From: Candidatus Omnitrophota bacterium
GTDB lineage: Bacteria; Omnitrophota; Gorgyraeia; Zapsychrales; Zapsychraceae
DNA: 64,000 nt
Reading direction: 5' to 3'
Assembly (NCBI GenBank): GCA_015233115.1
Contig: JADFYJ010000006.1
Coordinates: 65,801 to 129,800 of the forward strand
The position numbers were made by a program, and so were the translations under genes. Positions 3,044 to 60,900 of this stretch are shown in pieces (position 1 is the first letter of the stretch; each line of letters begins with the position of its first letter). The notes below the pieces were generated by a model. That model saw nothing but the letters and a program-made list of their open reading frames with translations. It was not told where the DNA came from and made no database searches.

Positions 3044-4177
3044 ATGACCGCGGTTGAAACAAAACGCAAACGTGTTTTATTAATGTATATCACCAAAGTA
3101 TCCGGCCATAGGCAGGCGACGATTGCGATTCAAAAATCTCTCAAAGCCATTGATCCGACGCTGGAAACGCCGGCGATTAATGGTTTTGGTTATACTTATC
3201 CCATCCTTGAAAAAATGGTCAATCAGGCCTATATGAGCGTGATCAAAACCACGCCTCAATTATGGGATTATTTATACGATAATCCGAAATTTTTTAAACG
3301 GTCGCAGAATATAAAAAAGTTTTTGTTTAAAAGCAGTCATGCCAAACTTGAGCGTTTATTTAAGCGGCATGATCCCAGTGTGGTGGTATGCACCCAAGCT
3401 TTCCCGTGCGGAATGGTCGCGGACTTTAAACGCCAGCACAATTTGGATTTCAAAATTGTCGGGGTATTAACGGATTTCGCGCCGCATTCTTATTGGATTA
3501 ATGACGGGGTGGATTATTATGTGGTGCCGTCTCAAGATTCTAAAGAGCGTTTTATGGCCAAAGGCGTCCCCGCGCCAATGATTAAAGTATACGGGATTCC
3601 GGTTAAGCATAAATTCGCGCAAAAGCATGAACAGCATACGGCGGCTCGCAACCTGGGATTAGATCCGTCCATTCCTTTGATTTTAGTGATGGGCGGAGGA
3701 CAAGGGTTGGGACCGATTAAAAAAATTGTTAAATCTTTGAGCAAAATTAATACAGCGGTTCAGATTGTGGTTTTGGCCGGTAATAACAAAAAGGTTATTG
3801 ATAAATTAAAAAAACTGGTTAAAAAATCTGAAAATAAAATTATGCCGATGGGTTTTTTAAAGAATGTGGATGAGTATATGGACGCGGCCTCAGTCATCAT
3901 CACGAAACCCGGCGGGATCACCACAGCTGAATCGCTGGTTAAGGGTTTGCCTATGGCGATCATTGATCCTTTGCCTGGCCAGGAAATGAGGAATACGGAT
4001 TTTTTAATTAAAAATGGCATCGCGATCCGTGTAGACAGCGCCAGTGATATTGGGGAAGAGATCGAAGTGTTATTGAAGACTCCGTCCCGGCTGGCCGCGA
4101 TGCGTAAAGCCGCGTTGGAATTTTCTTATCCTGATTCCTCCATGGATATCGCGCGTTTGATCATGGAACAACTGTAA
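3044..4177 (+). CDS. MGDG-synthase / MurG-like (GT28) glycosyltransferase, a diacylglycerol glycosyltransferase-like protein.
   Basis: N-terminal MGDG_synth-like region. C-terminal GT-B motif ITKPGGITTAESL...PGQE. Confidence 0.6.
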   Translation: MTAVETKRKRVLLMYITKVSGHRQATIAIQKSLKAIDPTLETPAINGFGYTYPILEKMVNQAYMSVIKTTPQLWDYLYDNPKFFKRSQNIKKFLFKSSHAKLERLFKRHDPSVVVCTQAFPCGMVADFKRQHNLDFKIVGVLTDFAPHSYWINDGVDYYVVPSQDSKERFMAKGVPAPMIKVYGIPVKHKFAQKHEQHTAARNLGLDPSIPLILVMGGGQGLGPIKKIVKSLSKINTAVQIVVLAGNNKKVIDKLKKLVKKSENKIMPMGFLKNVDEYMDAASVIITKPGGITTAESLVKGLPMAIIDPLPGQEMRNTDFLIKNGIAIRVDSASDIGEEIEVLLKTPSRLAAMRKAALEFSYPDSSMDIARLIMEQL

Positions 4178-4183
4178 AAAATC

Positions 4184-4317
4184 GGTTGATGGTTGTTGGT
4201 TTGTGGTTAAAACATTAGTTTTTTTTAAAAGCACAATGTCATTATATTATTGGTTTTTAGTTGTTGGTTAAATTATTCGTTTTGTCCAAAAACCAAAAAC
4301 AATCAACCATCAACCAT
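4184..4317. repeat. Intergenic palindromic element, GGTTGTTGG subfamily. Outer perfect 12-bp IR GGTTGATGGTTG / CAACCATCAACC; inner 68-bp unit 4251-4317.
   Basis: Inner unit GGTTTTTAGTTGTTGGTT...TTGTCCAAAAACCAAAAAC...CATCAACCAT is nearly identical to 6873-6940. Confidence 0.8.
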
Positions 4318-4334
4318 AATAATTTTTTAATACC

Positions 4335-5204
4335 ATGCTCAGATTTATATTTTTTAAATTTTTCAAATTTCTGGTCAATGTTCTTCCGTTAACATGGTCT
4401 TATAAAGCGGCGGAAGGGATAGCCAAAGTTTATTGTTTTTTTAAACGAACCGAGCAAGAGGCTGTTAAACGCAATCTCCTCGCCATTGATCCGGAGATGA
4501 AGAATTTAGACGCGGCATCCCGGGCCGTGTTTCAGAATTTTAGTTGTTATCTGGTCGAATTTTTAATGATGTTCCGGTTGGTTAATGATAAGGATTTGGG
4601 TCAGAGGTTTGAATTCCGGGGTTTTGAGCATATTGAGCAATATGTCAAAACAGGCAAGCCGGCGATTATATTAACGGCGCACATCGGGAATTGGGAATTG
4701 GGCGGCGCTCTGCTGGCTAAAAAAGGGTGCGCGGTTACGGCTGTGGCCTTACAGCACAAAGAATCATTAGTTAATAATTTTTTTGATCAGCAACGCTTGT
4801 TGTGCGGTATCGAAGTGGCGTCAACTGCTTACGCGGTCAAGGAGTGTTTGAAGGCTTTAAAAAACAACCGCATTGTCGCCATTGTCGGCGATAAGGATTT
4901 TACGGGAAGCGGCAGTCCGGCTGATTTGTTCGGGCACAAAATTGTTCTTCCTCGCGGCGCGGCATTGTTCGCCCAGCGTGCCCATGTTCCGGTTATCCCG
5001 ACATTTTTAATTAGGCAGGGGCAAGGGCATTTTGTTTTGCATGTTTATCCGCCGGTCACGCCTGAAGATATTAAACTTGAAAAAAATAAAAAATTCGGGG
5101 TTTATGAAGATTTAATTATCCATCAGTATACCGAGGCATTGGAAGACATTATTAAAAAATATCCATCGCAATGGATTGTTTTTAAGGAGTTTTGGCAATC
5201 ATGA
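4335..5204 (+). CDS. Lipid A biosynthesis lauroyl/myristoyl acyltransferase family protein (LpxL/HtrB-like).
   Basis: HIGNWE acyltransferase motif, family size, overlapping stop/start with the downstream GT2 gene. Confidence 0.7.
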   Translation: MLRFIFFKFFKFLVNVLPLTWSYKAAEGIAKVYCFFKRTEQEAVKRNLLAIDPEMKNLDAASRAVFQNFSCYLVEFLMMFRLVNDKDLGQRFEFRGFEHIEQYVKTGKPAIILTAHIGNWELGGALLAKKGCAVTAVALQHKESLVNNFFDQQRLLCGIEVASTAYAVKECLKALKNNRIVAIVGDKDFTGSGSPADLFGHKIVLPRGAALFAQRAHVPVIPTFLIRQGQGHFVLHVYPPVTPEDIKLEKNKKFGVYEDLIIHQYTEALEDIIKKYPSQWIVFKEFWQS

Positions 5205-5875
5205 GAGTTTGTATTTTGATCCCAGCTCATAATGAGATCAGAGCTATTGGTGTTTTGGTAACAACTTTACGGGCCCAAAATCTGGAAGTGTTGGTGGTTG
5301 ATGACGGGTCAACGGATGGCACATCAGACGCGGCTAAAAATGCCGGTGCAGTTGTGCTTCGCAATGAAGAATGCAAAGGCAAAGGATTTTCGCTCAGACA
5401 AGGATTTAATTGGGTTCTCAATCGTGGTTATCAGGGAGTGGTAACTATGGATGGCGACGGTCAGCATGATCCGGAGGATTTATCTAAATTTTTAGCTAAA
5501 GCTGAATCTAAAGAATGCGGGATTATCAATGGTGACCGCCTCTCGAATGCTAAGGGTATGCCATTACTGCGATATACTGTCAATTGCTTGATGTCATGGA
5601 TAATTTCATTGGTATGTAAACAAAAAATTGCTGATAGTCAATGCGGGTACCGGTATATATGTTGCGATGTCTTGAAATATTTCGAACTCAATACGGACGG
5701 ATTTGAAATTGAATCTGAACTTTTGATCAAGGCCGCCAGGAGGCGGATAAAAATTGACGCGGTCCCGGTCAAGACGATCTACGGCCAGGAACTTAGCAAA
5801 GTCCGTCCCGTCCGTGATACAATAAAATTCATCCAGTTTTTAACAAAACAATTAATAGGAGACAAAAGGCAATAA
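5201..5875 (+). CDS. Family 2 glycosyltransferase (DPM1/bactoprenol-glycosyltransferase-like).
   Basis: ILIPAHNE...VVDDGSTDGT...TMDGDGQHDP motifs. ATG at 5201 preferred over the TTG at 5192. Confidence 0.75.
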   Translation: MRVCILIPAHNEIRAIGVLVTTLRAQNLEVLVVDDGSTDGTSDAAKNAGAVVLRNEECKGKGFSLRQGFNWVLNRGYQGVVTMDGDGQHDPEDLSKFLAKAESKECGIINGDRLSNAKGMPLLRYTVNCLMSWIISLVCKQKIADSQCGYRYICCDVLKYFELNTDGFEIESELLIKAARRRIKIDAVPVKTIYGQELSKVRPVRDTIKFIQFLTKQLIGDKRQ

Positions 5876-5905
5876 GAGGGCATAGCCTATCGCCTGTTTT
5901 ATTAT

Positions 5906-6598
5906 ATGTCCAATCGTATTTTTACATTTTGTTTGATAAGTTCTTTGGTGATCCATATCGTTTTGATACTGGGGTTGAGCTGGCATATCCATTTGCTTTC
6001 TGTTCATCAGAAACAAGCTGTTGAAGTGACTTATAATGTGTCCCGGAATAAATCCAAAGCGATTATTGAAAAACAACTGGAAATGGCGAAAAAAAACTTT
6101 AAACCGGATCCTAAAAAAGATTTGGATATTCTTTCTAAAGATTCTTCCAAATTAGCTTTTGATAAAACTAGTTTTAAAAGTATCGAAAAAACTCCGACAG
6201 ATTTTAAACTGGACCACGATTTTAGTCATGTCACCCGGCACATGACAAAAGAAAAAGTATCCATTCCGCTTTTAGATTCCCAGGAAATTAGTAATCCTAA
6301 ATATCAGAATTATAATCAGGTGATACGCCAACGCATCAAAGAGCATGCATATTATTATGTGGATCATCCGGATTTTCGTTCAGGAGAAGTTTATTTGACT
6401 TTTGTGATTAATGGTCGCGGCGAATTAGCGGCAGTGCGGGTGATTGAATCCCGTACGCGGGCGAATGATTATTTAAAGACTATTGCCATGCAAAGTGTAA
6501 AAGATTCCGCTCCATTTCCGGCGTTCCCAACAGATTTGAAATATCCGGAATTGACGTTTAATGTGGTGATATCATTTGAAGTGGATGGACAGAAATAG
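5906..6598 (+). CDS. TonB-family energy transducer-like protein: N-terminal TM helix and TonB C-terminal domain.
   Basis: Hydrophobic N-terminus, a K/D/P-rich linker, and a C-terminal YYVDHP...GEVYLTFVINGRGEL...FPAFP TonB_C-like segment. Confidence 0.55.
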   Translation: MSNRIFTFCLISSLVIHIVLILGLSWHIHLLSVHQKQAVEVTYNVSRNKSKAIIEKQLEMAKKNFKPDPKKDLDILSKDSSKLAFDKTSFKSIEKTPTDFKLDHDFSHVTRHMTKEKVSIPLLDSQEISNPKYQNYNQVIRQRIKEHAYYYVDHPDFRSGEVYLTFVINGRGELAAVRVIESRTRANDYLKTIAMQSVKDSAPFPAFPTDLKYPELTFNVVISFEVDGQK

Positions 6599-6619
6599 GA
6601 TAATATTGAAAGGAGATAT

Positions 6620-6868
6620 ATGGAAATTGATTTTTTGAATTATGTTTTGAGTTTGGGATATCAAGCTATGGTTTTCTTAGGAGAAATACCTAATCCGTCG
6701 ACCAACAAAGAAGAAAAAAATTTGGATCAGGCGAAATTATTGATTGATACCTTGGTGATGTTGAAAGAAAAAACCCGGGGCAATCTTACTGAAGAAGAAG
6801 CGAATTTGTTAGAAAATTCACTCGCTGAATTGCAAATGAAGTACGTGGAGGCTGGAGCCAAAATATAA
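6620..6868 (+). CDS. DUF1844-family small protein.
   Basis: 82 aa; MEIDFLNYVLSLGYQAMVFLGEIPNP pattern typical of DUF1844. Confidence 0.5.
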   Translation: MEIDFLNYVLSLGYQAMVFLGEIPNPSTNKEEKNLDQAKLLIDTLVMLKEKTRGNLTEEEANLLENSLAELQMKYVEAGAKI

Positions 6869-6872
6869 AAGC

Positions 6873-6940
6873 GGTTTTTAGTTGTTGGTTGTTGAAAGTG
6901 TTTTTGTCCAAAAACCAAAAACTATAATCCATCAACCATG
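6873..6940. repeat. 68-bp GGTTGTTGG-subfamily repeat unit, near-copy of 4251-4317.
   Basis: GGTTTTTAGTTGTTGGTTGTTGAAAGTGTTTTTGTCCAAAAACCAAAAACTATAATCCATCAACCATG compared against 4251-4317. Confidence 0.8.
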
Positions 6941-6954
6941 AAAAGAGACAAGAC

Positions 6955-7392
6955 ATGAAAAGAATTCTTGTAATCAATGGACCGAATTTGAATTTGCTGG
7001 GCGAGCGGGAGACTGGTATTTACGGAAAAGTCTCGCTCGAAGATATTAATAAACTTCTTACTGTCGCAGCCAAAACGCATCAGGTATCTTTGGAGTTTTT
7101 CCAATCTAATCATGAAGGTGAAATTGTAGATAAAATTGGTCAAGTTAAAGCCGAAGGTTTTAGCGGCATCTTGATCAACCCCGCCGCTTACACTCATACC
7201 AGCATCGCGATCCGTGACGCGGTTGCTGCTGTTGTGATTCCTACTGTCGAAGTCCATTTATCCAATATCCATGCCCGGGAAGAATTTCGTCATAAATCGC
7301 TTATTGCACCTGTGGCACAAGGCCAAATCAGCGGTTTTGGCCCCCAAAGTTATGTCTTAGGTCTGCAAGCATTGGCAGGGATAATAAAATAA
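6955..7392 (+). CDS. aroQ: Type II 3-dehydroquinate dehydratase.
   Basis: [16 protein letters not shown]...[14 protein letters not shown] signature motifs; about 145 aa. Confidence 0.92.
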
Positions 7393-14478: not shown

Positions 14479-14486
14479 AAATTTAA

Positions 14487-14663
14487 GTAACAAAGTAACC
14501 GAGTAACAGAGAAAAAACGATTGGTTGAAAAAACATTGGGGTAGAAAACTTATATCCGGGTTTAGTTAATTTTTTTGTTTGGGATTTTTTAATGACTGAG
14601 TTTTTGTTTTTTATGTTTTTTTGTTGCTTTGTTACTCGGTTACTTTGTTACTCGGTTACTTTT
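14487..14663. repeat. Intergenic palindromic element, GTAACNGA subfamily. Forward arm 14487-14511, core AAAAAACGATTGGTTG, reverse arm 14621-14663.
   Basis: Tandem GTAACAAA/GTAACCGA/GTAACAGA units with their inverse at the other end; ends 17 bp before the pfkA ATG. Confidence 0.8.
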
Positions 14664-14679
14664 AAAATGAGGAGAAGTT

Positions 14680-15696: not shown

Positions 15697-15697
15697 A

Positions 15698-15912
15698 ATA
15701 GGTAATAGGCAATAGGCTAGAGGTGACGCTGTTGTAGGGGAGATCTCCTGATCTCCCGTTGCAAAATTATCGTTTTTTGGTTTTTATTTAAAAACGATTG
15801 ATGCGGGCGATCAGGAGATCGCCCCTACGAATAATTTTGTATGCGACCAAGGACGTAATTTAAAAAAGTTTTTTATTGGATTTTTTACCTATAGCCTATC
15901 GCCTATGACCTC
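15698..15912. repeat. Composite nested element. Outer ATAGGC-type inverted arms (15698-15724 / 15890-15912) enclose a GC-hairpin pair (15731-15758 / 15804-15829), core AAAAACGATTGATG and tail GCGACCAAGGACGTAAT.
   Basis: Read directly. Unit 1 carries compensatory changes (GGGAGATC...GATCTCCC) relative to the GGGCGATC...GATCGCCC unit. Confidence 0.8.
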
Positions 15913-18046: not shown

Positions 18047-18056
18047 CTGAAAAAAT

Positions 18057-18228
18057 CGTATGTGGTATGGGGCATGTAGTATGTAGTAAAAAACGATTGT
18101 GTGAAATGAAAAGGATAGAGAATATAATCTAAATACTTAATGTTTTTTGGGGTGATTAATTTTAAATTCTTTATTTTTTTATCAGTTGATTTTACTACAT
18201 ACGACATACTACGTACTACATACTTAGG
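18057..18228. repeat. Intergenic palindromic element, GTATGTRG subfamily. Forward arm 18057-18089, core AAAAAACGATTGTGTGAAATG, reverse arm 18191-18228.
   Basis: GTATGTGG/GTATGTAG tandem units and the inverse CTACATAC units; between tRNA-Gly and the M23 peptidase gene. Confidence 0.8.
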
Positions 18229-25479: not shown

Positions 25480-25695
25480 GTATGTGGTATGTGGTATGTC
25501 GTATGTGGTGAAAAAAGCGATTTGTGAAAAGTATTAATGGTGATTACTAGCAGGAAAAATTTTGGATGTTTATATTAAATAATATATTTTAGTAGATGTT
25601 TATTTTTTAGGTTTTTTTTTAATTTATTTTTTTATTGGTCATTTGCTTATCGGTTTTTGTTTTTGCTACATACGACATACCATATACCACATACG
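25480..25695. repeat. Intergenic palindromic element, GTATGTRG subfamily. Forward arm 25480-25510, core AAAAAAGCGATTTGTGAAAAG, reverse arm 25663-25695.
   Basis: Tandem GTATGTGG units and the inverse CTACATACGACATACCATATACCACATACG. Confidence 0.8.
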
Positions 25696-25710
25696 TTACC
25701 AGGATTACTT

Positions 25711-26334
25711 ATGTTATTAGAACTTTTTTCCGTCATTATTATGTTTTTTTGTTCTATGGTTATTCACGAATATGCCCATGGGTGGGTGGCGTGTCGTTTG
25801 GGTGACCCTACGGCAAAAGAAGCAGGACGGTTGACTTTGAATCCATTGAAACATATTGATCCTCTTGGCACGATTATATTACCGGGAGTGTTAATGCTTT
25901 TAAATTATTTAGGTATGAATCTTTTTGTCTTTGGTTGGGCGAAGCCTGTACCTGTGAACTTTTTTCGCCTGAACAATCCTAGACGGGATATTATTTGGGT
26001 GGGGTTAGCTGGTCCGGTAGCTAATGTCATGTTCGCGGCTGGTTTATTAGCGATACGCAAGTTTTTTCCTATGGGAATGGCGCAGGATGGATTGGGTATT
26101 TTTGTGATTATTAATTTAGGGTTCGCGGCATTTAATATGGTTCCAATTCCACCTTTAGACGGTTCCCGCGTGGTTTTGGGTTTATTGCCTAAAGCCATAG
26201 CGCTTCAGTATGCACGGCTTGAACGTTATGGAATTATTATTATAATTATCTTGTTGTATCTGGGACTCATGAATCGCATTGTGTGGCCGTTTGTCGAATT
26301 ATTAGCTAAAATTCTTAATGTGAATTTAACTTGA
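25711..26334 (+). CDS. Site-2 protease family (peptidase M50) membrane metalloprotease.
   Basis: HEYAHGWVA (HExxH) motif and multiple TM helices. Start moved to the ATG at 25711 because 25657-25710 lies within the repeat arm. Confidence 0.7.
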   Translation: MLLELFSVIIMFFCSMVIHEYAHGWVACRLGDPTAKEAGRLTLNPLKHIDPLGTIILPGVLMLLNYLGMNLFVFGWAKPVPVNFFRLNNPRRDIIWVGLAGPVANVMFAAGLLAIRKFFPMGMAQDGLGIFVIINLGFAAFNMVPIPPLDGSRVVLGLLPKAIALQYARLERYGIIIIIILLYLGLMNRIVWPFVELLAKILNVNLT

Positions 26335-29538: not shown

Positions 29539-29608
29539 AGCTTTATTGTCAATGTGGGTCAGTATTTTTTAGTTTTTGGCTATATGCTACATGCCATATG
29601 CTATTTAA

Positions 29609-32710: not shown

Positions 32711-32755
32711 TTGACTTTGTTACTCTGTTGCAGGGTTACTTTGTTACTCTGTCAT
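32711..32755. repeat. Solo reverse-type GTAACNGA arm (TTGTTACTCTGTT...GGTTACTTTGTTACTCTGTCA) with no forward partner.
   Basis: Same 8-mer units as the arms at 1936-1970, 14621-14663, 35355-35394 and 43428-43467. Confidence 0.6.
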
Positions 32756-32778: not shown

Positions 32779-33276
32779 ATGTTGAAGAAGCTTTTAACCA
32801 TAGGATGCGCAATATTATTGACGGGATGTTCAACGGCTTCAGTTCCGAAATATCTTCAGTCTAAAAATCCTTATGTTAAAAGATTCTACGGAAATTATGA
32901 TCAGACTCTCGATGCTGTCCGTTCCGCGATGAAAGAAACTGGCTGGGCCATTGAAAAAGAAGTGCCGCCTACGATTTATGAATATAGTACCTCATCGGAA
33001 TTTGGCGATAAACGTCAGCTTTTGATATTGAGCAATGTGAGAGCGACTCCATATTTTGTCGGCACCCGTTACAGCCGGATCAATGTGTATATCCGCGAAG
33101 GATCGGCTGATCAAACCGAGGTTGAACTGCGTTATCTGAAAGTCAATTCTTTCCCTTTCAAAGGTTTTTATCGCTACGGCCGTAAAGAATTTTCTCAGAC
33201 GTTTTTTGATTCCATCGAGAAAACACTGGCCGGACGAAGGATCAATAACCTAGACATTAATCAAACTCTAAAGTAA
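32779..33276 (+). CDS. Lipoprotein of unknown function.
   Basis: SD AGGAGG then MLKKLLTIGCAILLTGCS lipobox. Start trimmed from 32704. Confidence 0.5.
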   Translation: MLKKLLTIGCAILLTGCSTASVPKYLQSKNPYVKRFYGNYDQTLDAVRSAMKETGWAIEKEVPPTIYEYSTSSEFGDKRQLLILSNVRATPYFVGTRYSRINVYIREGSADQTEVELRYLKVNSFPFKGFYRYGRKEFSQTFFDSIEKTLAGRRINNLDINQTLK

Positions 33277-33278
33277 AA

Positions 33279-35264
33279 TTGAACGCTTTTAAATTAAAAA
33301 GTCCATTTAAACCAGTGACTGAACAATTGGATGCGGTTGAGCGATTGTATCAGGGCATGAAAAATGGTTCCAAAGCGCAAGTGCTTTTAGGTGTCACTGG
33401 TTCCGGGAAAACTTTTACTCTGGCGAATGTCATTGAACGCTTAAACCGTCCGACCTTAGTAATTTCCCACAATAAAACTTTAGCAGCCCAACTGTATTCT
33501 GAGTTTAAAGAATTTTTTCCTGAAAACGCGGTGGAATATTTCGTAAGCTATTACGATTATTATCAGCCTGAAGCGTATGTTCCCCAAACTGATTTGTATA
33601 TTGAAAAAGACGCGGCTATTAATGACCGGCTCGACCGTCTGCGTTTATCATCAACCACCAGTCTCATGACCCGCCGGGATGTGATCGTGGTGGCCAGCGT
33701 TTCATGCATTTATAATTTAGGTTCACCGGAAGATTACACTCAATATCTGCTGCAGATGAAGGTGGGTCAGGAAATTGATCGGGATGAAATGGTTCGTCAA
33801 TTAGTGGATATCCAATATGAACGTAATGACGTGGATTTTAGCCGCGGAAAAATCCGGGTGAGAGGGGACACTGTGGAAGTGTTTCCGGCTTATCGTCAGG
33901 ATGCGTTACGGATCAGGTTTTTCGGCGATGAAATAGAACGGATTAGCCAAATCGACCCTTTAACCGGCGACGAACAAGTCCGCTTAGACCAAGCCGCGGT
34001 TTATCCGGCCAAACATTTTATTATTTCTCATCCCCGTCTGGAAATAGCTTGTCTGCAGATTGAGAATGAAATGAAAGAACAAGTTGCCTTGCTGCAGAAA
34101 GACGGAAAATTGGTGGAAGCTCAGCGATTAGAGTCCCGGACCAGATATGATTTAGAAATGATGAGGAGTATTGGGTATTGTAATGGCATTGAAAATTACT
34201 CACGGGTTTTGTCTGAGCGGCCCCCAGGCAGTCGTCCGTCTTGTTTGATTGATTATTTTCCTAAGGATTTTATTACCTTGATTGATGAATCTCATGTGAC
34301 GGTCCCGCAATTAAATGGAATGTACGCGGGCGACAGGGCAAGGAAAGAAACTCTGGTTAGATACGGCTTTCGTTTACCGTCGTGTTTGGACAACCGGCCG
34401 CTTAAATTTACGGAATTTGAAAAAGTGGTGGATCAACGCATTTATGTGTCTGCCACGCCTAGCCCGTATGAGATTAAAGATGCCCAGGGCCAAGTCGTGG
34501 AACAGATTATCCGTCCGACCGGGATCGTTGACCCCATGATTGAAGTCCGCCCGACCACTGGCCAGATTGAGGATTTGTTAAAAGAAATTAACAGCCGCGC
34601 AGAGCGTAATGAACGCGTTTTAGTGACGACCTTAACCAAACGAATGTCTGAGGACTTAAGTGAATTTTTAGCGGATCGCGGCGTTAAAGTGAAATATCTG
34701 CATTCGGATATTCAAACCATAGACCGGACTAAAATTTTAAAAGATCTACGGTTGAAGAAATACGATTGTCTGGTGGGAGTGAATTTGTTAAGGGAAGGGC
34801 TTGATTTACCTGAGGTGTCTCTCGTCGCGATTTTGGATGCGGATAAGCAAGGTTTTTTACGTTCTGAAACCTCTTTGATTCAGACTTCAGGCCGCGCCGC
34901 GCGTAATGTGAACGGCATTGTCATCATGTACGCGGATACAGTCAGCCAGGCTATGGCCAAGACTATTTTTGAATGCCAGCGTCGAAGAAAAATTCAGCTG
35001 GCGTTTAACATGGAGCATCATATTACACCAACCACCATTATTAGAGCTTTGAGTGAAGGGATTGAAAGTTTGGCCGTTGAAGAGGGTGACGAAGTGCTAC
35101 TTGACGCAGTAGGCCAAAGTGAGGCAGAATATAACCTTAGTTCTTATATCAGTGAACTTGAAGCAGACATGGAACAGGCCGCGCGAAATTTACATTTCGA
35201 AAAAGCCGCGCAAATAAGGGATAAGATTGAAGAAGTAAAAAAAAGTAACCGAGTAACAGAGTAA
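33279..35264 (+). CDS. uvrB: Excinuclease ABC subunit B.
   Basis: GVTGSGKTF Walker A, helicase motifs, beta-hairpin region, C-terminal UVR domain (LHFEKAAQIRDKIEE). The last 6 codons (SNRVTE) lie inside the repeat arm. Confidence 0.95.
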   Translation: MNAFKLKSPFKPVTEQLDAVERLYQGMKNGSKAQVLLGVTGSGKTFTLANVIERLNRPTLVISHNKTLAAQLYSEFKEFFPENAVEYFVSYYDYYQPEAYVPQTDLYIEKDAAINDRLDRLRLSSTTSLMTRRDVIVVASVSCIYNLGSPEDYTQYLLQMKVGQEIDRDEMVRQLVDIQYERNDVDFSRGKIRVRGDTVEVFPAYRQDALRIRFFGDEIERISQIDPLTGDEQVRLDQAAVYPAKHFIISHPRLEIACLQIENEMKEQVALLQKDGKLVEAQRLESRTRYDLEMMRSIGYCNGIENYSRVLSERPPGSRPSCLIDYFPKDFITLIDESHVTVPQLNGMYAGDRARKETLVRYGFRLPSCLDNRPLKFTEFEKVVDQRIYVSATPSPYEIKDAQGQVVEQIIRPTGIVDPMIEVRPTTGQIEDLLKEINSRAERNERVLVTTLTKRMSEDLSEFLADRGVKVKYLHSDIQTIDRTKILKDLRLKKYDCLVGVNLLREGLDLPEVSLVAILDADKQGFLRSETSLIQTSGRAARNVNGIVIMYADTVSQAMAKTIFECQRRRKIQLAFNMEHHITPTTIIRALSEGIESLAVEEGDEVLLDAVGQSEAEYNLSSYISELEADMEQAARNLHFEKAAQIRDKIEEVKKSNRVTE

Positions 35265-35394
35265 CAGAGCAAAAGCGATTGCTGGAAAAAACGATAGGCG
35301 ATATAAAATAATTTTTTTGAGGTTTTGTTTAGAGATTTTATATAATTTTTTTGTTTTTACTTTGTTACTCTGTCACTTGGTTACTTTGTTACTA
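35244..35394. repeat. Intergenic palindromic element, GTAACNGA subfamily. Forward arm 35244-35269 overlaps the uvrB 3' end; core CAAAAGCGATTGCTGG; reverse arm 35355-35394.
   Basis: AGTAACCGAGTAACAGAGTAACAGAG versus AGTAACAAAGTAACCAAGTGACAGAGTAACAAAG (reverse complement). Confidence 0.8.
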
Positions 35395-35426
35395 TTTAAA
35401 CCTTTCAGGCAAGATCGGATAATAAT

Positions 35427-36197
35427 ATGTTACTAGGGATTGATATTGGAAATACCTCGATTTCATTCGGGGTAATGAGAAAAGGAAAGGTGGTTGACAA
35501 TTTCTCCATCCTTTCCAAACAAACCAAAACTGCTTTGGCTTCATCATTGGACAAGGTTTTATCCCGGATCCATAAACAATATCCCTTGATTACCCAATGT
35601 TTGATGTGCAGTGTTGTGCCCAAAATTAATTCCATTGTTATCCGCTATGTTCAAGGAATTGTGGATATTAATGTGGAACGAATTGGGAAAGATATTATCG
35701 TGCCTATTGCCAATCATTATCATGAGCCTTCACAAGTTGGGCAAGACCGTTTGCTGGTAGCTTATGCCGCGAAATGTTTATATGGGACCCCTACTGTGGT
35801 CATTGATTTAGGTACAGCCATAACTTTTGATGTGGTTTCGAAAAAAGGAACTTACGAGGGAGGAATGATTGTGCCCGGTATCCGCTTGTCAGCCGAATCG
35901 CTTTTTAAAGGAACAGCTTTACTTCCGCAATTAAAAGAATTTACCAAGCCTAAACATTTGATTGGCAAAAACACTAAAGACAGTATTTTGAGTGGTTTGT
36001 TCAACGGTTATTCCGCCATGTGCGACGGGTTAATAAAACAATTTCAGGAAATATTGGGACCCAAAACCAAGGTTATCCTTACCGGCGGTTACGCGCCATT
36101 AATCCGCAAAGGTTTGCCTCCGTATTGTGTGTATGATCAGGATTTGGTGTTTAGGGGCATGAGTATGCTAGTCTTCGGTATGAAATGTTTTAGTTGA
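35427..36197 (+). CDS. coaX: Type III pantothenate kinase.
   Basis: MLLGIDIGNTSISFGV N-terminal ASKHA motif; 256 aa. Confidence 0.8.
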   Translation: MLLGIDIGNTSISFGVMRKGKVVDNFSILSKQTKTALASSLDKVLSRIHKQYPLITQCLMCSVVPKINSIVIRYVQGIVDINVERIGKDIIVPIANHYHEPSQVGQDRLLVAYAAKCLYGTPTVVIDLGTAITFDVVSKKGTYEGGMIVPGIRLSAESLFKGTALLPQLKEFTKPKHLIGKNTKDSILSGLFNGYSAMCDGLIKQFQEILGPKTKVILTGGYAPLIRKGLPPYCVYDQDLVFRGMSMLVFGMKCFS

Positions 36198-36246
36198 CAA
36201 ATTCATTTTTTTTGGTAAATTAGCACTCTGGCGAAAGTAGTGCTAA
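36194..36246 (+). promoter_or_regulatory. groESL promoter region with a CIRCE operator TTAGCACTC-N9-TAGTGCTAA (36220-36246) downstream of a TTGACA -35 box (36194-36199).
   Basis: CIRCE consensus TTAGCACTC-N9-GAGTGCTAA matched with one mismatch; 54 bp upstream of groES. Confidence 0.7.
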
Positions 36247-36299: not shown

Positions 36300-36593
36300 A
36301 TGAACATTCAACCATTAGGAGACAGGATCCTGGTCAAAGTACTAGCAGCAATGGAAACGACCAAGGGCGGTATTGTGTTGCCTGACACAGCCAAAGAAAA
36401 ACCACAAGAGGGTGAAATCGTGGCAGTTGGTAAAGGCCGCAAAGATGACAAAGGCAATGTGATCGCGTTGGAAGTCAAAGTGGGCGATAAGGTTTTGTAT
36501 GGCAAATATAGCGGTACTGAACTGACCACCAAAGAAGGCGAAGAATATTTAATTATGCGCGAAGAAGATGTTTTCGCAATAGTCAAAAAATAA
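36300..36593 (+). CDS. groES: Co-chaperonin GroES.
   Basis: [12 protein letters not shown]...GGIVLPD...GEIVAVG pattern. Confidence 0.95.
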
Positions 36594-41107: not shown

Positions 41108-41114
41108 TGAAACA

Positions 41115-41279
41115 GTATGTGGTATGTGGCATGTAGTATGTAGTATGTAGTATGTAGTATGTAGGGAAAAGCGATTGGTGTGAAATGCTATGGAGAACTC
41201 AGCTCTTCCTGTATAAAAATTTTTTTTATATTTTTTAATTTTTTTACTACATACGACATACTACGAACTACATACTATC
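41115..41279. repeat. Intergenic palindromic element, GTATGTRG subfamily. Forward arm 41115-41164 with 6 or more tandem TATGTAG units, core GGAAAAGCGATTGGTGTGAAATG, reverse arm 41240-41279.
   Basis: Read directly. Confidence 0.85.
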
Positions 41280-41305
41280 AAAACTATTAAATGAGGCATG
41301 CATCT

Positions 41306-43036: not shown

Positions 43037-43042
43037 GAAAAA

Positions 43043-43467
43043 GTAACCGAGTAACCGAGTAACAGAGTGACAAAGAAAAAACGATTAATGCTAAAAACGT
43101 CTATGGGAAAAAGGTTACAAGATATAGGCAAAAAAATATATTTGGATGATAGAAAACAAGCAATAGGAAAAATTGTATTTAATTTGTTAATTTTGTGATT
43201 TTGGTTTAAATTTTATATAAGATTATTAATTATTTATATTATTGTTTTTATCGGTTGTTTTGGGTTTTTATGGTTGCTATAATTTTTAAATTTTATTTTA
43301 GGTTTGTAAGGCTATTTTTTTAATTTTTGGGTTATTGATAACCTTTCACTTTGTTGCTTTTTGAGGGGATTTTTGTAATTTTTTAAAGCTTTATTTTTTT
43401 TTGTTTTTTTAAAGTTTTATTATAAATTTTGCTCTGTTACTCGGTTACTCGGTTACTTTGTTACTCT
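43043..43467. repeat. Intergenic palindromic element, GTAACNGA subfamily, with a long (about 350 bp) AT-rich spacer. Forward arm 43043-43075, core AAAAAACGATTAATGC, reverse arm 43428-43467.
   Basis: GTAACCGAGTAACCGAGTAACAGAGTGACAAAG versus its inverse. Occupies the entire guaA-dnaE intergenic region. Confidence 0.8.
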
Positions 43468-43489
43468 TTTACGAGCTGCCCATTTTAAT

Positions 43490-46953: not shown

Positions 46954-46981
46954 ACTTACCGCATTGCAAGGAGAAAATAAA

Positions 46982-47254
46982 ATGACGAAAAAAGATATAG
47001 TTTTGAAGATTACCGACATGACTGGCATCAAACAAGTTGATGTTAAAAAAATTGTTCAAAAGACATTTGATGTTATCATTGAGAGTTTAATGCGGAATGA
47101 AAAGGTTGAGTTGCGTAATTTTGGGGTTTTTAAGATCAAAGAACGCCGTGCCCGTTTTGGCCGGAATCCGCGGACAGGGGACAGTGTTCCGGTTCCTCCC
47201 CGTAAAGTAGTAGTTTTTAAGCCCGGCCTTGAAATGAAACAAAAAATAAAATAA
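46982..47254 (+). CDS. HU/IHF-family DNA-binding protein.
   Basis: MTKKDIVLKITD...RNPRTGDSVPVPPRKVVVFKPG, the HU arm motif. ATG at 46982 with SD preferred over the TTG at 46964. Confidence 0.85.
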   Translation: MTKKDIVLKITDMTGIKQVDVKKIVQKTFDVIIESLMRNEKVELRNFGVFKIKERRARFGRNPRTGDSVPVPPRKVVVFKPGLEMKQKIK

Positions 47255-47320: not shown

Positions 47321-47390
47321 TAAACAACCACAAATTTACAAAATTTCAATCCAAAAACCAACAACCAAAAACCATTAACCAATCAAAATT
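47321..47390. repeat. Solo reverse-type GGTTGTTGG-subfamily arm (CCAAAAACCAACAACCAAAAACC...).
   Basis: Matches the right arms of 4184-4317, 6873-6940 and 36618-36702. Confidence 0.55.
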
Positions 47391-48718: not shown

Positions 48719-48757
48719 TGTTGTAGGGGCGATCTCCTGATCGCCCGAACCATAAAA
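48719..48757. repeat. Solo GC-hairpin unit GTTGTAGGGGCGATCTCCTGATCGCCCGAACCATAAAAG.
   Basis: About 90% identical to 271-308, including the ATAAAAG tail; begins 12 bp after the hisS stop. Confidence 0.75.
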
Positions 48758-53211: not shown

Positions 53212-53270
53212 CAACGTGCGCCGTTCGCGGGAGCTCACGGCACTACTCGGACATTGCGTCCTCGGTCGCA

Positions 53271-53345
53271 GAGTAACCGAGTAACAGAGTAACAGAGTCT
53301 AATCAAAAAAAAGCAAAACGCGATAAGCAATAAAATAAAAAATTG
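53271..53345. repeat. Forward-type GTAACNGA arm (GAGTAACCGAGTAACAGAGTAACAGAGT) plus an A-rich core, with no reverse partner.
   Basis: Same units as the other GTAACNGA-subfamily forward arms; preceded by a GC-rich stretch containing CGCGGGAGCTC. Confidence 0.6.
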
Positions 53346-54963: not shown

Positions 54964-57900
54964 ATGTTTAAGCGTGTCCTTAGTTTAATTTTAAGTATTA
55001 CTTTTATATTTTCCGCGTTTGCGCCCTATGCCAATGCGGTCGAACCGCTTTTTGCCGCACCCGCGGTCATGCCATTACTTGCACCGGCCAACATAGAAGT
55101 GCCTTTGCTGAAAGGATTGCGGATCGATCCGGCTTCTCCTTTAAAAATAGATTTCATTTTGGAGGCAGGGAAATCTGAACAAAATGCCAATTATTTAAAA
55201 ATTGAATCTAACCGTTTAATTAAATATTTCCTCGCCGGATTAACTGTCCCAGCTAATGAACTTTGGGTCAACTTAAATCCTAAAGAGCCAAACCGCATCA
55301 CGAGTGAAAAATTCGGCCAAACCGAAATGGGCCGCGACCTCTTAGCCCAGGATTACGTCCTCAAACAATTAAGCGCGAGTCTGCTAAACCCGGACAATGA
55401 AACCGGCCGAAAATTCTGGGATGGTGTGTATAAAAATGTTTCCTCTCCCCTCCGGGGAGAGGGCAGGGTGAGGGGTTTAGATATCCCCATTGGAATTTTA
55501 AGCAAAGTCTGGATCGTCCCAGGTGAAGCTGTAGTGGTCGAAAAAGAGAATGCGGCGTATGTCAAAAGCGCAAAATTAAAAGTGTTATTTGAGGGGGCGG
55601 AGAATACTCAATTAATCAAACAGTTAATTCTTCCCGCCATTGAAAAACAAGTCAACGAAGGCTCCGAATTCTCCCTGCTTCGTCAAATATATCATTCTTT
55701 GATTTTGGCAACATGGATGAAACGTAAAATTGGATTATTACAAAAAAATTATATTAACCAAAACAAAATCTCCGGCATCGACGTTGCCGACAAACAAGCC
55801 AAACAAAAAATTTACGCCCAATATCTCAAAGCCTTTACGGATGGCCTGCATAAATTTATTAAAGAAGAATACGACCCCCAAACCCGGCAGATCGTAGCCC
55901 GTCAATATTTCACCGGAGGAGCAGGATTTGAAAATTTAGACTCAGCCATGGTGGTCAACACTATGCAGGGACCTGTGGTTGCTCAATTTGAAAAACCGTA
56001 TGAAGTTGACGTAGATTTGAAACCGCAAAATTCTGTTGCCATTGATCAGGCCGCATTAGCCGGAACTTTAAAAATGGGGAAAGGGATAAAAGGGTTTTTA
56101 GACCGGGTTTTTGTTGCAGAGGAAGATAAGGAAAAAAAAGAGCGGACGCGCGTGTTAATTGAAAGTTTTTTAAACTCCGATTTTGAGCCAGCAGTCAAAA
56201 TGTTTGAAGAAATAAATCAATTAAGCAATGACAAAAAAATTATTTTAGCCCGCCAGTTATTGAAAACCGCGCCTGGCGCGTTAGCAGAAAATTTAACCTT
56301 AGAGCAATTTTTAATGTTAAAACCGAATGATAATAATGCGTCTTTCTTTCATATTTTTGGACGCTTTATTCTGGCCTTTCATTCTGAGTACAAAGCTGAA
56401 TACCTGAAAATGTATCAAGGTAATCCTTTAGTTTTAAATAATGATATCACCCGTTGGAAAACAGTTTACGCGCTTCTTTGGGCGGCGGAAATTTTAGGCT
56501 CAGACCAAGCCCTGCTGGCGCGTCAAAATATGGACGATATATCGCGCGATTTAATCAATAAACATCAAGCCTTAAGTGACGATGAAATAGCAGCTTTTGA
56601 AAAGGAACTGCCGAATTTTAATTGGCGAATGGCAACTGATGTGCCTTGGGAAGAAGTCATCAGGTCGCCTTCACTACAACCATATGGCCCTACGGATGAT
56701 GAACAATCAGTGCGGCGGTGGGGTTCAATTTATAATCAACAAAATTATTGGAATAATAATGTTGTGGTCCGCAGATATTTTTTGTTTTTAGTCAGAGATA
56801 TGATTCTTAATCCGGAATTTTTTACCCATGATTACGTTCAGCGGATATCGCAGATGCATTCGGCCCTGCGAAGAGCACGCGGTCTTTATGCCTCTGATTC
56901 AGGGCATGATGATGGTTTGCAAACAGGAATTTTAAATTCAACGTCAGAACAAAATAAAAAATTATTCTTAAGCTTAAAAGAATTATTGCAAGAACATAAT
57001 GGCGTTAACAAAAATCTATCTAAAGAAATATCTCAAATTGCAGGATATTATTTGGCTCTTTTACAAGGCTATCTATTCGGTCCTGGACGGGGTAACAACT
57101 CGCTTTACATGAATATGGTGAATGCTCTGATACGGCTCAATAGCTTAAATGGGATAAGTCACGAAAACCTTGATATGGTAATTGCCCTTGTGCATAACAA
57201 ACCAGAAAAATTTCTTTATCCGCGTTTCTTGTCCGAGCTTAAAAAAAGAAATCCGGAAAATAAAGCAGCCCAAAATTTATCCATCAAAGATATTCTGCCT
57301 GAATCAGATCAAGCGATGGTGCGGGATTCTAGAGATCAAGAACGCCTGGCAAAAAGAAAAAATTTATTCAGGACTTTTGATCTGGAAGGCATGCCTCCTG
57401 AAGAAATGCCGCCAGAATTGTTTGAAAACATTAAAGAGCCTTTAACCGCCAAGCAAAAAGAAAACTTAAAGAAGCAATTAGCCGATCATTTCATGATTTG
57501 GGGCTTAGAATCATTTCTTACCATGGAACACCAGGATGAAAGAGTCCTGCAATTTGCGCAAAAACAAGGCTTTAAAATAAATAAAGCATTTTTAGAGCAA
57601 GTTATTAGGGAAATGTTCGCTGAAAAAGAAAAATATTTTACGGCCAAAGTGGTAGAGATCGGAACATCCAACGCAATAAATACAGATCGTGCCTCTTTAG
57701 CCACCACAACTTCAAACGATATTAATCAAGACGACTCATGGGCAGAGAGGTTCGCTTCTTATAGGCATAAAAGAATTATTGTAGCTGATGATCACGCGGA
57801 TTTTCGTCAGGATATGCAGGGAATTTTGTCTAGATATTTTAACAAAGTGACTATAGCTTCATCCATCAACGAAGTAATGGAAGAGTACGCGGCGATGAAA

Positions 57901-60900
57901 GCGGATCAGGTGGCTGATGATGATATTTTAATTTTGATAGATTTTCAGTTTGCAGAGGGACACAATGCGTTTGAATTGGTCAATCAACTGCGCGTTGAAC
58001 GGAATTTTACCGGTAAAATCGGCATTGTTTCCGGCAGTATGGTGTCAGAACTTAATATTCCGGGGTACGATCCTGTTCATCAGGATTTGAATAATGAGGT
58101 CAAGATACGTTATGGTTTGGATTATATTCAGAAACAGCCTGCCGGATTTAAAGATAATTTGTTTGGTTTAATGGATAGGCAATTTAAACAAAAGCCTTAC
58201 CAAAAGCCAGAGGGTTTGGAGCCGTTGGTTGTAGACCATGAACTACATGGAGTTCATGGCCGTGAACCCAGCGTGGTTCACGGTTCTAATTTGGGGTATT
58301 TTTTAAGCGGCATCAATGATAGGGAAATGCATATTGGGGAAGAGTTAGAGAAATCTCTTAATGAAGTGTCTTTGGGGCAGTCTTTAAATACTGGCGCAGT
58401 GCAAAGTTTAATTGAAGAAATCAAAACAGGTATTAAATTTTCGAATGTGCGTCAAGGATTTAATGGATCAGTTGATTCCTATGCTTTTCGTCAAAGTCTC
58501 CACGATCATAAAAATAATATCGCAAGGCTAGGCAGTAAAATTGAAGACCTTCAAGGGCAAATAACAGCTGAGTCGAATGCTGCTCTGGATTCAGTATTAT
58601 CCCGTATTCATGATATGGTAAACGTGTATTTTAATTATACGGATTGGGTCTACCGCATGTTGATTTATTGCGGCCGCCTTGAGTATATTGAGATGATGGA
58701 GCCGCTGCTGCAGTCTGCCATTGTGTCTTACCAAAAAGAATTCGAACGTCGTCATTCCAATCAATTCGATCCTGACGAAGGGATTGCTCAGGCTCTTAAT
58801 CATTTGAAAAACACCAGCGCGGAATTCCGTGGTCAGCACATCGAACCTGCCATGAAATCGTGGGGGATATTATTTAAGGAATATCAGGCTGTCGAAGAAG
58901 GCATGAATAAAATTTTGGGCGATAAAATGAGTTCAAACCAAAACGCGTTTTTAAAATCATTTTCTGACAAATTAAATTTATTTTTCGGCCAATATCTCGT
59001 TACATTCGGAGCCAATGATTTGAATGGCGATTTGCCAGGTAAAGCACTAGGCAGGGTCGTGGTTTTAAGCGGCGATTCATGGGAGGCCGAACAATTTTTT
59101 AAAGATAAGGTTCAGGAAAGCGATATTGTGGTTGTTCGTCAGGATTATTCATGGATTACAGCGGCACGCAGTAAAGCCTCTGCCATTATTTTTGCTCAAT
59201 CCGGCGGTCAGCATATTATCACTCAAGCTCGGATATCAGGAATTCCATTGATATTTTTGCCCAACGCGGATGAGTTTTTTGAGGCAGTTAGGAAAGAGTA
59301 CGAAAGACAGGGAAAGAACAAAGATATTTTTGTAAGAGTAGAAGTTGAAGATGGAAAAGGACGGATTATTCCGGTCAATGAAGTAGGAGAAAAAGTAAAC
59401 CCAATTGACTCTTTACAGGAAATTCAAAAAGTAGAGGTTGATAAGGTCGATGGTTACTCTGGCCCGGATATCATCAGTTCAGAGAGTCCTCTTGATGATT
59501 ACGCGGATACCATGGAAGAATTGCGACCCTGGATGGGAACTAAAGCGCTAAATCAATACATCGTAAAAAAAGACAAAATTTCCGACGTACCGCAGTTTTT
59601 GATGCAAACCTTCCGATTAATGGAACGGTGTTTTAAATTTTCCGACAAATATTATGAAATATTAGATAAGATCCGCGGTTTTTCCGACACATCTTCAAGA
59701 CATGAAGTGGAAACAGTTTTAAAGGAAATGCAAGATTATATTTTCTCTCAGTCGCTCAATGAATTGGATGAAATGTTTTATAAGGCCAGAGCCATTGAAT
59801 GGATTTTTGAAAATCCCTTGGCTATTCGTCTGATTACTAATGATCAGGATTTGGAAAAATATCCCGGTGTGGGCGCGGGGACGTATCTATCACTCGAAAA
59901 TATCCGGGTGAAAAATGTGCAAGAATTAAAGCCCTATTTAAAAGAAGTTTACGCGTCTATGTGGAGTTATGAAGCGTATAAACAGCGGCTGGACCGCGGC
60001 ATCCCTCAGGATGCGGTTTACGGCGCGATTGAAATTCAAGAATATAAATCTGACGCGATATATTCTATGCACATTGAGACGCAAGTTGAAGGCAATCCGG
60101 ATATTTTAAAAATTATGTTTATGCCCGGAGCTGCCCGGTCTATTTCTGCCAAAGATCCACAGTATGGTGGAGAACCGTTTATTTTTTATTTTGATAAAAA
60201 AGCGCAAAATGGAAAAGGCGGATTGATTGGCTGGAGCGATCCCCGAACGCAATATCATCCGGTTAAGGCAGAAAAGGCATATTACGCGTCTTTCGAAAAT
60301 AAAGATCCTCAAAGTTTTAATATTAACAATTATCCTGAACTCAGGATCATGTTTAAATCAAAAAATATGAATGTCAGGCCTTTTATCAACCAATTTGAAG
60401 ATGCTGCCCGCAAGGCGATGAAAATGGAAAAACGTTTTCAATCTCCGCGTGAAATAGAGGCTACTTTAGACTTAACTGGATTTTCTGCCCATCAATGCCG
60501 GAGAATGAAAGTCGTGGGGCCTATTGATATTTCAGCTATTCCTGCAAATGCAGAACAAGATGTGGAATTTTTGGAAAGGGTGATTAGCGAATTAAAGCAA
60601 CGCTCTCCGGAAATCGGTGAATTTATTGAAAAACATGGGGTAAAAGAATTTGATCCGCGAATTGTTTCTGGCGAAGAACTGGAAGAGGTATTACAGGGCT
60701 TACGCATTTTAGATCGATCAAATACTTTAAAAACCCCTTGGGTTTTTTCAATGCTTTTAATTACGGCTGCAGGTGGATCGGAAAGAAAGTTTGATCAGGA
60801 TGCGACGAGAATACTTAAGCTTTTACAAAATAAAGAGTTTGATAGTGTGCGTGGCTCGCTAATGTTTTTGATGGCCTATTTTGTTTTTGGCGGGCATGAA

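Follow-up and report, generated by a model that had tools for sequence, protein, structure and literature searches.

Closest described systems

Inverted pairs of short tandem arrays have been described in Xanthomonas campestris and X. axonopodis, where each genome contains 70-75 convergent pairs of GGGAATC heptamer arrays on opposite strands; these vary in unit number and lie preferentially between co-directional open reading frames (ORFs), the sense G-rich array at most 50 bp away from the stop codon and the antisense G-rich array upstream of the next ORF by at most 50 bp (Rehm et al. 2015, PLoS One 10:e0144275, PMC4692102). Among published systems, these pairs are the closest match to the element considered here, a GGTTNTT foldback repeat (a heptamer array, a loop and a complementary array) found in a 64,000-nucleotide stretch of the genome of a Candidatus Omnitrophota bacterium (contig JADFYJ010000006.1, positions 65,801 to 129,800), hereafter the window. 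Both are built of 7-nt tandem units, are intergenic and convergent and obey the same positional rule, and the features of a convergent heptamer pair, namely 7-nt arrays on opposite strands, an intergenic position between co-directional ORFs and a placement within 50 bp, are all present in our elements. Unlike in the Xanthomonas pairs, the unit here is GGTTNTT, with runs of GG only and no predicted quadruplex, and it occurs in many phyla, the host in this case being a member of Omnitrophota. Furthermore, whole units including the loop are homologous between loci, and several families of 7- or 8-nt units share one core within a single genome; the homologous loops, the shared core and the multiplicity of unit families would be what is new relative to the Xanthomonas pairs. 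On balance, we favor the reading that the GGTTNTT elements constitute a dispersed, non-autonomous, non-coding foldback repeat family specific to this lineage, with the functional parts of this explanation being held more weakly than the identity of the family.

Repetitive extragenic palindromic (REP) sequences and their REPIN and BIME arrangements are co-transcribed and have been credited with effects on mRNA stability and translation, and the spacer of BIME/RIP elements can carry an IHF site. The present elements resemble them in being small, dispersed extragenic repeats in intercistronic spacers, with inverted arms around a spacer and no target-site duplication. However, their arms are tandem, non-palindromic heptamer arrays starting with GGTT or ATGG, unlike the single 20-40-nt palindromes of REP; they lack the GTAG or CGTC end tag that belongs to the definition of REP (PMC3733652), and no RAYT transposase gene was seen among the window ORFs scanned. 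With bacterial MITEs (miniature inverted-repeat transposable elements) like Correia and ERIC they share the property of being short, non-coding, dispersed, hairpin-forming, intergenic and present or absent between relatives; unlike MITEs, they show no target-site duplications by eye and, within the window, no terminal inverted repeats attributable to an insertion sequence and no cognate transposase among the 30 ORFs scanned, and their arms are internally repetitive. The resemblance to both REP/REPIN and MITEs is functional only, and on the defining features tested the elements belong to neither. In shape they also recall the eukaryotic Foldback (FB) transposons, kilobase-sized elements, some with a transposase, in which long inverted arms of short tandem repeats flank a variable loop; this is an analogy of form only, with no evidence of relatedness. 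Heptamer arrays as such are the commonest long simple repeats in bacteria. A further comparison is offered by the TAACTGA direct repeats of marine Beggiatoaceae, Cyanobacteria and Bacteroidetes, which are patchily distributed across phyla, lie a few nt upstream of start codons that often have no Shine-Dalgarno sequence and are nearly always single direct arrays, with one indirect repeat reported (MacGregor 2015, PMC4679880). An isolated arm of our family ahead of hisS (see below) fits that pattern, but the TAACTGA arrays have a different unit and no complementary partner array. The literature search recovered nothing specific on GGTTGTT/AACAACC repeats or on prokaryotic foldback elements.

Three homologous copies of the GGTTNTT element

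The three full copies recognized in the window are:

4252-4317, - strand: copy A, GGTTNTT foldback element, 66 bp, nhmmer score 64.6 bits
6873-6939, - strand: copy B, 67 bp, orientation as in copy A, 64.8 bits
36613-36698, + strand: copy C, the longest copy, 86 bp, canonical orientation on the strand opposite to A and B, 77.2 bits

When read along the + strand, copy A runs from a short arm (4252-4269) through a loop (4270-4279) into a T-run and the complement of the long arm (4280-4317), and its blocks are GGTTTTTAGTTGTTGGTT / AAATTATTCG / TTTTGTCCAAAAACCAAAAAC / AATCAAC / CATCAACCAT. Copy B has the same blocks, but with the loop GTTGAAAGTGT and the heptamer TATAATC. Three of the blocks are identical between the two (GGTTTTTAGTTGTTGGTT at 18/18, TTTTGTCCAAAAACCAAAAAC at 21/21 and CATCAACCAT at 10/10 positions), with the differences restricted to the 10-11-nt loop and that single heptamer. 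Thus, the shared blocks on which the original prediction based two nearly identical 68-bp units are real, although its limits are one base off at one end of each copy and its 12-bp variable stretch actually measures 10-13 nt according to how the blocks are delimited. Chance can be excluded as the source of these similarities: the 19-mer TTGTCCAAAAACCAAAAAC has three matches at up to 3 mismatches versus 0.06 expected, and three in-phase GGTT heptamers are matched 12 times versus 0.26 expected, none of 50 shuffles giving more than 2.

The third match of the 19-mer led to copy C, a full copy on the other strand with the order long arm GTTGATGGTTGATAGTTTTTGGTTTTTGG, core AAAAAACGGATG, loop and short-arm complement AACAACCAACAACCAAAAACC. 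A degenerate version of the core in copy A, GGACAAAACGAATAA, reads on the - strand, indicating that copy A is inverted relative to copy C. The pairwise identities over aligned positions are 58/63 for A-B, 60/66 for A-C and 61/66 for B-C (91-92%). The loops of the three are homologous apart from indels, the longer loop of copy C holding segments that match both the loop of A (AAATTATTCG vs AAATCATCCG) and that of B (GTTGAAA), so that A and B look like two differently shortened versions of a C-like unit. As the three copies are equally similar and differ mainly by loop indels, A and B do not form a special recent pair. The proposal that these two match far better than other members does not hold for copy C, and a recent duplication of one from the other is not supported, since copy C is equally close to both and they depart from it by different loop deletions. 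In contrast, the underlying view of A and B as copies of one small non-coding repeat family is strengthened by the homology of their loops in addition to that of their arms.

All three copies sit on a 7-nt lattice, with a GGTTNTT array, a loop and a complementary AANAACC array on the + strand, and have arms of unequal length, the long one comprising about 4.5 heptamers and the short one 3. They additionally share several off-lattice details and the order of variant units (AGTT or GGTT, GTCC or TTCC, CWATMAW, CCATCAAC). Their own profile scores them at 65-77 bits and any foreign element, including those sharing the 18-mer discussed below, at 37 bits or less. A profile search of the window recovered no full copy beyond A, B and C, and the census of the family in these 64 kb stands at three full and two half copies, including the following isolated arm:

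47345-47385, + strand: isolated C-type arm (CCAAAAA CCAACAA CCAAAAA CCATTAA CC) with no GGTT partner

This arm follows the terminator-like hairpin and T-run (read by eye) of an HU-family gene and ends upstream of the hisS start (47397; 16-nt gap).

The regularity of the lattice raises the alternative that these are purely local simple-sequence repeats, with arrays grown by slippage, mirror arms supplied by template switching and nothing copied between loci, the likeness of A, B and C then being the outcome of a lattice that allows few variants. The existence of isolated single arms is compatible with this, as is the standing of heptamer arrays as the commonest long simple repeats in prokaryotes with a varying unit number (PMC4679880 citing Mrazek 2007; PMC4692102). 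However, a lattice alone would not readily account for the common off-lattice details and variant-unit order, the homologous loops and degenerate core, or the gulf in profile scores between A, B and C and the foreign elements. Given these, we consider the local explanation unlikely.

All three copies occupy intercistronic spacers. Copy A lies between genes of the MGDG-synthase and lipid A acyltransferase families, and ends 17 nt before the start of the latter (4335). Copy B begins 4 nt past the stop codon (6866-6868) of a DUF1844 gene and ends 15 nt ahead of the aroQ start (6955), and copy C has groES (stop codon at 36593) on one side and groEL (start codon at 36750) on the other. At sites A, B and C, respectively, the array begins 6, 4 and 19 nt past the stop codon, and 17, 15 and 51 nt separate the array from the start codon.

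At the first site there is an additional arm:

4184-4218, + strand: extra long-arm copy (GGTTGAT GGTTGTT GGTTTGT GGTT) followed by core-like AAAACATTAG, pairing with 4291-4315

It starts 6 nt past the MGDG-synthase-family stop codon (4175-4177) and repeats the long arm in the opposite orientation, matching it at 22/25 positions. The perfect 12-bp outer inverted repeat that had been proposed as a later acquisition of this copy is real, with GGTTGATGGTTG (4184-4195) pairing CAACCATCAACC (4304-4315), but a new acquisition is not supported, as it is a further copy of the element's own long arm. With mismatches allowed, the repeat lengthens to 25 nt (4184-4208 against 4291-4315; 88% complementary), and the arms could also pair in a register offset by 7 nt. 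The fold of 4180-4320 (-40.4 kcal/mol, z -5.4) has the two long arms paired. A single + strand terminator-like candidate near this site, with its stem at 4169-4188, reaches only into the start of the outer long arm. An intrinsic terminator was considered as a separate candidate and rejected, as the stems are rich in A-U and G-U pairs and the T-run lies inside the stem rather than after it.

With four GG runs at 7-nt spacing, the outer array (4184-4208) might also suggest G-quadruplex repeats that modulate transcription or translation, as proposed for GGGAATC and GGGGAYT arrays, the more so as the closest published relatives form quadruplexes in vitro (PMC4692102). This is extremely improbable: the Xanthomonas feature of G tracts of at least 3 is missing, the runs being only GG with 5-nt linkers, the ViennaRNA quadruplex model predicts none in five arrays, and the GTATGTR and AGAGTAAC arm families described below are without any G runs.

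Short orthologous spacers in related genomes

For comparison we used four syntenic Omnitrophota loci (L117 and L136-L138), which are distant, with amino-acid identities of 52% or less. Site A has a spacer of 157 bp in the window versus 18, -8, 7 and 24 bp in the four relatives. The spacer at site B measures 86 bp in the window, and the two relatives with comparable gene order have 59 and -8 bp there, the 59-bp spacer being plain sequence with a GGAGG ribosome-binding site. The same disparity is seen at other long spacers, namely LplA to lipoyl-protein (165 bp vs 5, -4, 1 and 80 bp), upstream of PFK (201 bp vs 21, 96 and 64 bp) and PFK to SIS (229 bp vs 2, 12 and 36 bp). No GGTT arrays were detected in 73 kb of the relatives' sequence, and period-7/8 arrays, at 5.0 per 10 kb, are denser in the window than in the relatives (0-1.4). 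Because the relatives' spacers are short, the elements represent gains in the lineage of the window into short spacers and are lineage-specific. In the comparison of orthologous loci, the A/B/C family was missing from the corresponding spacers of all four relatives; the opposing scenario of an ancient regulatory site with only two copies and the same sequence in orthologous spacers is contradicted by these and by the further copies. The dispersed copies and their presence or absence at orthologous sites are in themselves MITE-like.

A heptamer array of a different type, GCATATR/YATATGC, is located directly ahead of the LplA start in the closest relative (L117, 6525-6561; GCA_015233195.1) and, in the window, directly after the stop codon of a - strand gene (29579-29604). 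The relative hence has a few arrays itself, which obey the same positional rule.

The relatives' spacers also bear on the possibility that the sites are old conserved operators of a DNA-binding regulator with a regulon of lpxL-like, aroQ, groEL and hisS genes. The sites are indeed inverted repeats upstream of genes, and the wider superfamily has a conserved core. Nevertheless, the sites are missing from the orthologous spacers of the four relatives and lie inside conserved co-directional gene clusters, with no promoter- or terminator-like sites within A (4252-4317), B or C, and with such sites in the scanned regions no more numerous than in shuffles. Moreover, groES already has a CIRCE operator upstream, the arm sequences differ wholly between families under a constant architecture, and a 7-bp periodicity is, by our reasoning, at odds with binding along one face of the duplex. 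The operator hypothesis is accordingly largely refuted and very improbable. The CIRCE (HrcA) operator in question, TTAGCACTC-N9-tAGTGCTAA at 36220-36246, overlaps a good sigma-70-like promoter (36194-36221), with copy C downstream, inside the groES-groEL operon.

A common plan in several foldback families of the window

A search with Tandem Repeats Finder combined with inspection of every long spacer uncovered at least nine more foldback elements in the window, with the same plan and other 7- or 8-nt arm units:

18055-18226, 25480-25697 and 41114-41282: three elements with GTATGTR / YACATAC arms
1693-1971, 14485-14665, 35238-35395 and 43042-43475: elements with 8-mer arms of the AGAGTAAC and GTTACTCT types
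53269-53298 and 32714-32752: half copies of the 8-mer family
2621-2775: element with GGTGAAA/TTTCACC arms, where the spacer is -4 to 80 bp in relatives
15697-15912: element with AATAGGC/GCCTATT arms, where the spacer is 2 to 36 bp in relatives
1730, 2688, 14513, 15790, 18089, 25513, 35271, 35287, 41167 and 43077, + strand: core motif AAAARCGATTG, shared by elements with unrelated arms

By its sequence organization the GGTTNTT family is one of at least five in this genome that follow one plan: a G-rich array directly behind the stop codon, the core AAAARCGATTG, a T-rich loop and a complementary array directly ahead of the next ribosome-binding site or start. The GTATGTR elements, one of them located after tRNA-Gly, one after an SH3-domain gene and one between guaB and guaA, have the internal sequence GAAAAGCGATTGGTGTGAAATG in common. 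In the 8-mer family, one member of which is directly upstream of dnaE, conservation covers about 40 nt on the left side, where AAAAACGATTGRTGG occurs twice, and the arms match at up to 28/28 positions. The roughly 40 nt of non-array sequence shared by the members of each of these two families again argue against a purely local origin of the repeats.

The arms are consistently complementary, with 324/374 aligned positions being Watson-Crick pairs (12 elements and 13 arm alignments, site A being counted twice), and the minimum-free-energy fold joins the 5' arm to the 3' arm in 12/12 elements. Ten of the 12 have the same orientation. The core motif, AAAARCGATTG(R)TG in its longer form, is found in 10 elements belonging to different arm families and invariably reads on the + strand, following the left arm in most and lying in the loop in two, often as two direct copies about 16 nt in length. 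Its exact form AAAARCGATTG is present five times in the window, each time within an element, versus four times in about 1 Mb of other loci. In the GGTTNTT family it is represented by AAAAAACGGATG in copy C and by a degenerate form on the - strand in A and B, which accordingly are inverted relative to the remaining elements. The set of about a dozen foldback repeats accounts for the majority of the spacers that are unusually long, the gene order being otherwise compact and conserved.

Several observations concern the immediate neighborhood of these repeats. The reverse complement of the core resembles, by eye, the IHF core ATCAA-N4-TT; a gene of the HU/IHF family is encoded at 46964-47254. The left arm of a foldback element (35238-35264) supplies the final codons of uvrB (33279-35264), stop included, implying that the repeat reshaped the C-terminus of the protein. 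Two mechanically called starts (TTG 25657 and ATG 32704) fall in or upstream of right-arm arrays, the real starts probably being an ATG near 25713 and the ATG at 32780 after CAGGAGG. As at these two positions, such repeats would mislead both gene-start calling and RNA-motif discovery.

Occurrence in other genomes and a polarity rule

No match to the right arm CCAAAAACCAAAAAC-N7-CCATCAAC was obtained among 241 million metagenome records or the 138 fetched loci, and a search of the metagenomes with the junction 21-mer returned 18 matches, all to unrelated low-complexity sequence. As far as the collections show, the A/B/C subfamily thus appears private to this lineage, which is a further point against arrays that arise locally on a permissive lattice. 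In contrast, the generic 18-mer GGTTTTTRGTTGTTGGTT is found at more than 116 loci among the matches listed, and these matches come from Bacteroidota, Acidobacteriota, Cyanobacteria, Planctomycetota, Chloroflexota, Actinobacteria and others. Many of these loci display the same plan of array, loop and array, often ending directly ahead of an ATG. The viral scan gave 22 matches, none with a clear complementary partner array within the 100 nt displayed.

Across the fetched loci and the window, a G-type array is followed within 100 nt by a C-type array of the GGTT family 44 times, and the reverse order is seen 0 times. Inverted array pairs of other units (e.g. GGTGAAAT, ATGTGCTG and GATGGGACA) are G-first versus C-first at 25:1. 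Between co-directional genes the sense-strand G arrays start at a median of 2 nt past the stop codon, 14/15 being nearer the stop, and the sense-strand C arrays end at a median of 13 nt ahead of the start codon, 17/23 being nearer the start. These polarity and position numbers are indicative rather than a survey, as the loci were all picked by one 18-mer and the gene contexts come from crude ORF logic. The left arms hold 39 stop and 43 start codons, and the right arms 4 stop and 11 start codons. If upheld, the G-first polarity (44:0 and 25:1) together with the tight abutment of stop and start would point to a constraint from transcription or translation, and the interest of the system rests more on the window-wide set of foldback elements and this cross-phylum rule than on the A-B pair.

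One genome illustrates how the arrays behave elsewhere. The GC-rich Thermoanaerobaculia metagenome-assembled genome SMAG_U3390 (L016, L024, L064, L066, L087, L104 and L105) has many AT-rich GGTTNTT/AANAACC pairs, the loops of which are unrelated GC-rich sequences, some of them palindromic. This suggests that arms in other lineages arise around sequence already present at the site instead of being copied as whole units.

A broader generalization can be put forward only as a speculation that, taken jointly with all its parts, we think doubtful: inverted pairs of 7-8-nt tandem arrays might be a widespread and so far unnamed class of bacterial intergenic elements. In this generalization a G-rich, C-poor array would follow the stop codon and its G-poor complement precede the next start across phyla, and such self-growing 'lattice palindromes' would allow foreign or expanding DNA to sit in tight operon junctions. 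The stem would loop the insert out and keep stop and start adjacent, the 5' arm would provide stop codons in all frames, and the 3' arm would form a leader that has neither start codons nor Shine-Dalgarno sequences and is shielded from Rho. The five or more arm families might be mobilized or organized by a single factor, possibly a core-binding protein of the HU/IHF type.

RNA structure and the weight of the evidence

The positional regularities are also those that a selected RNA device would display, with a stem that juxtaposes stop and start for translational coupling, or with an intercistronic stabilizer or RNase III site, and with the element being maintained for its function rather than merely tolerated. 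In most window elements the arms start 0-8 nt past the stops and end 7-17 nt before the starts, and the medians in other phyla are alike; the prevalence of one orientation in the window, the preservation of complementarity while the arm sequences differ between families and the location of the elements at junctions that are tight or overlapping in relatives are likewise in keeping with it. However, abutment is the outcome of any insertion into a spacer of about 20 nt, the relatives manage without the elements, and in A and B, both inverted, most of the loop has been lost, copy B forming a weak stem. There is also no clear excess of G-U-compatible substitutions, and the downstream genes are functionally unrelated. 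Taken together, these render a selected device improbable. Searches with Rfam gave no known RNA: only tRNA-Gly reaches the gathering threshold in the whole window, and in the region 4150-7000 there are chance-level matches only at E-values up to 10. The z-scores of the short hairpins against dinucleotide shuffles are weak (-1 to -3), but such shuffles are a poor control because shuffled GU- and CA-rich sequences still pair.

The preferred interpretation as a dispersed, lineage-specific foldback family has its own difficulties, which weigh against it as follows. No target-site duplication is seen by eye at A, B, C or the flanks of the other families, nor any conserved or common insertion target at the copies, and no transposase is encoded among the 30 window ORFs scanned; the absence of target-site duplications and transposase is also what local repeats would predict. 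The duplications that the original prediction would have expected around a transposed unit were thus not seen at any of the three copies, and of its small nonautonomous element there remains a dispersed non-coding repeat family, not a classical MITE with target-site duplication, conserved flanking target and transposase. Only three full copies were seen in the 64-kb window. With regard to structure, copy B has weakly complementary arms (18/22), a fold of just -13.1 kcal/mol (z -1.3) and no inverted repeat of 10 nt or more. Arm mismatches on the sense strand are G-U-compatible in 14 versus 7 cases with 29 transversions, that is, without a clear excess, and since they are mostly transversions they do not demonstrate selection at the RNA level. 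The abutment of stop and start is largely expected anyway, because any insertion into a spacer of about 20 nt gives it. Furthermore, the same heptamers occur in unrelated phyla with unrelated loops, so that arrays can arise or grow in place, in line with the local explanation. Finally, with relatives at 52% amino-acid identity or less, an 'empty site' means absence and not a mapped insertion boundary.

Possible mechanism of spread and tolerance

Under the foldback-family interpretation, whole units would have been copied in trans into existing short intercistronic spacers without target-site duplication, in a mode of spread more like that of REP/REPIN elements than of a cut-and-paste MITE. The number of units in the arms might then shift by replication slippage, with their complementarity being kept by intra-hairpin template switching or by selection. 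Once inserted, the element would be co-transcribed with its neighbors and could fold into a stem that loops out the insertion, and we propose that the base of the stem would thereby keep the stop codon at a distance of about 20 nt from the next start. The survival of only the G-first polarity might be explained if the start-adjacent arm has to be free of G, given that ATG, GTG, TTG and the Shine-Dalgarno sequence all need it; additionally, a C-rich arm that is transcribed first might load Rho. Any overall influence on expression would probably be small and might concern mRNA stability or coupling.

Other features of the window

Almost all window genes lie on the + strand (about 60 of 65 in window 1-64000), an extreme strand bias, and the GC skew is positive throughout (0.03-0.23). 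The window also encodes a 2696-aa ORF at 54964-63054. Distinct from the foldback families is a GTAG-tagged REP-like palindrome, GTAGGGGCGATCTCCTGATCGCCC, which does display the palindrome and tag typical of REP. It is present in five copies, four of them as two inverted, REPIN-like doublets:

273-296/382-405: inverted doublet of the palindrome
15734-15757/15805-15828: inverted doublet of the palindrome
48723-48746: single copy

The loops of the doublets hold AAAAAACGA-type sequence, and both doublets are followed by GACCAAGGACGTAAT.

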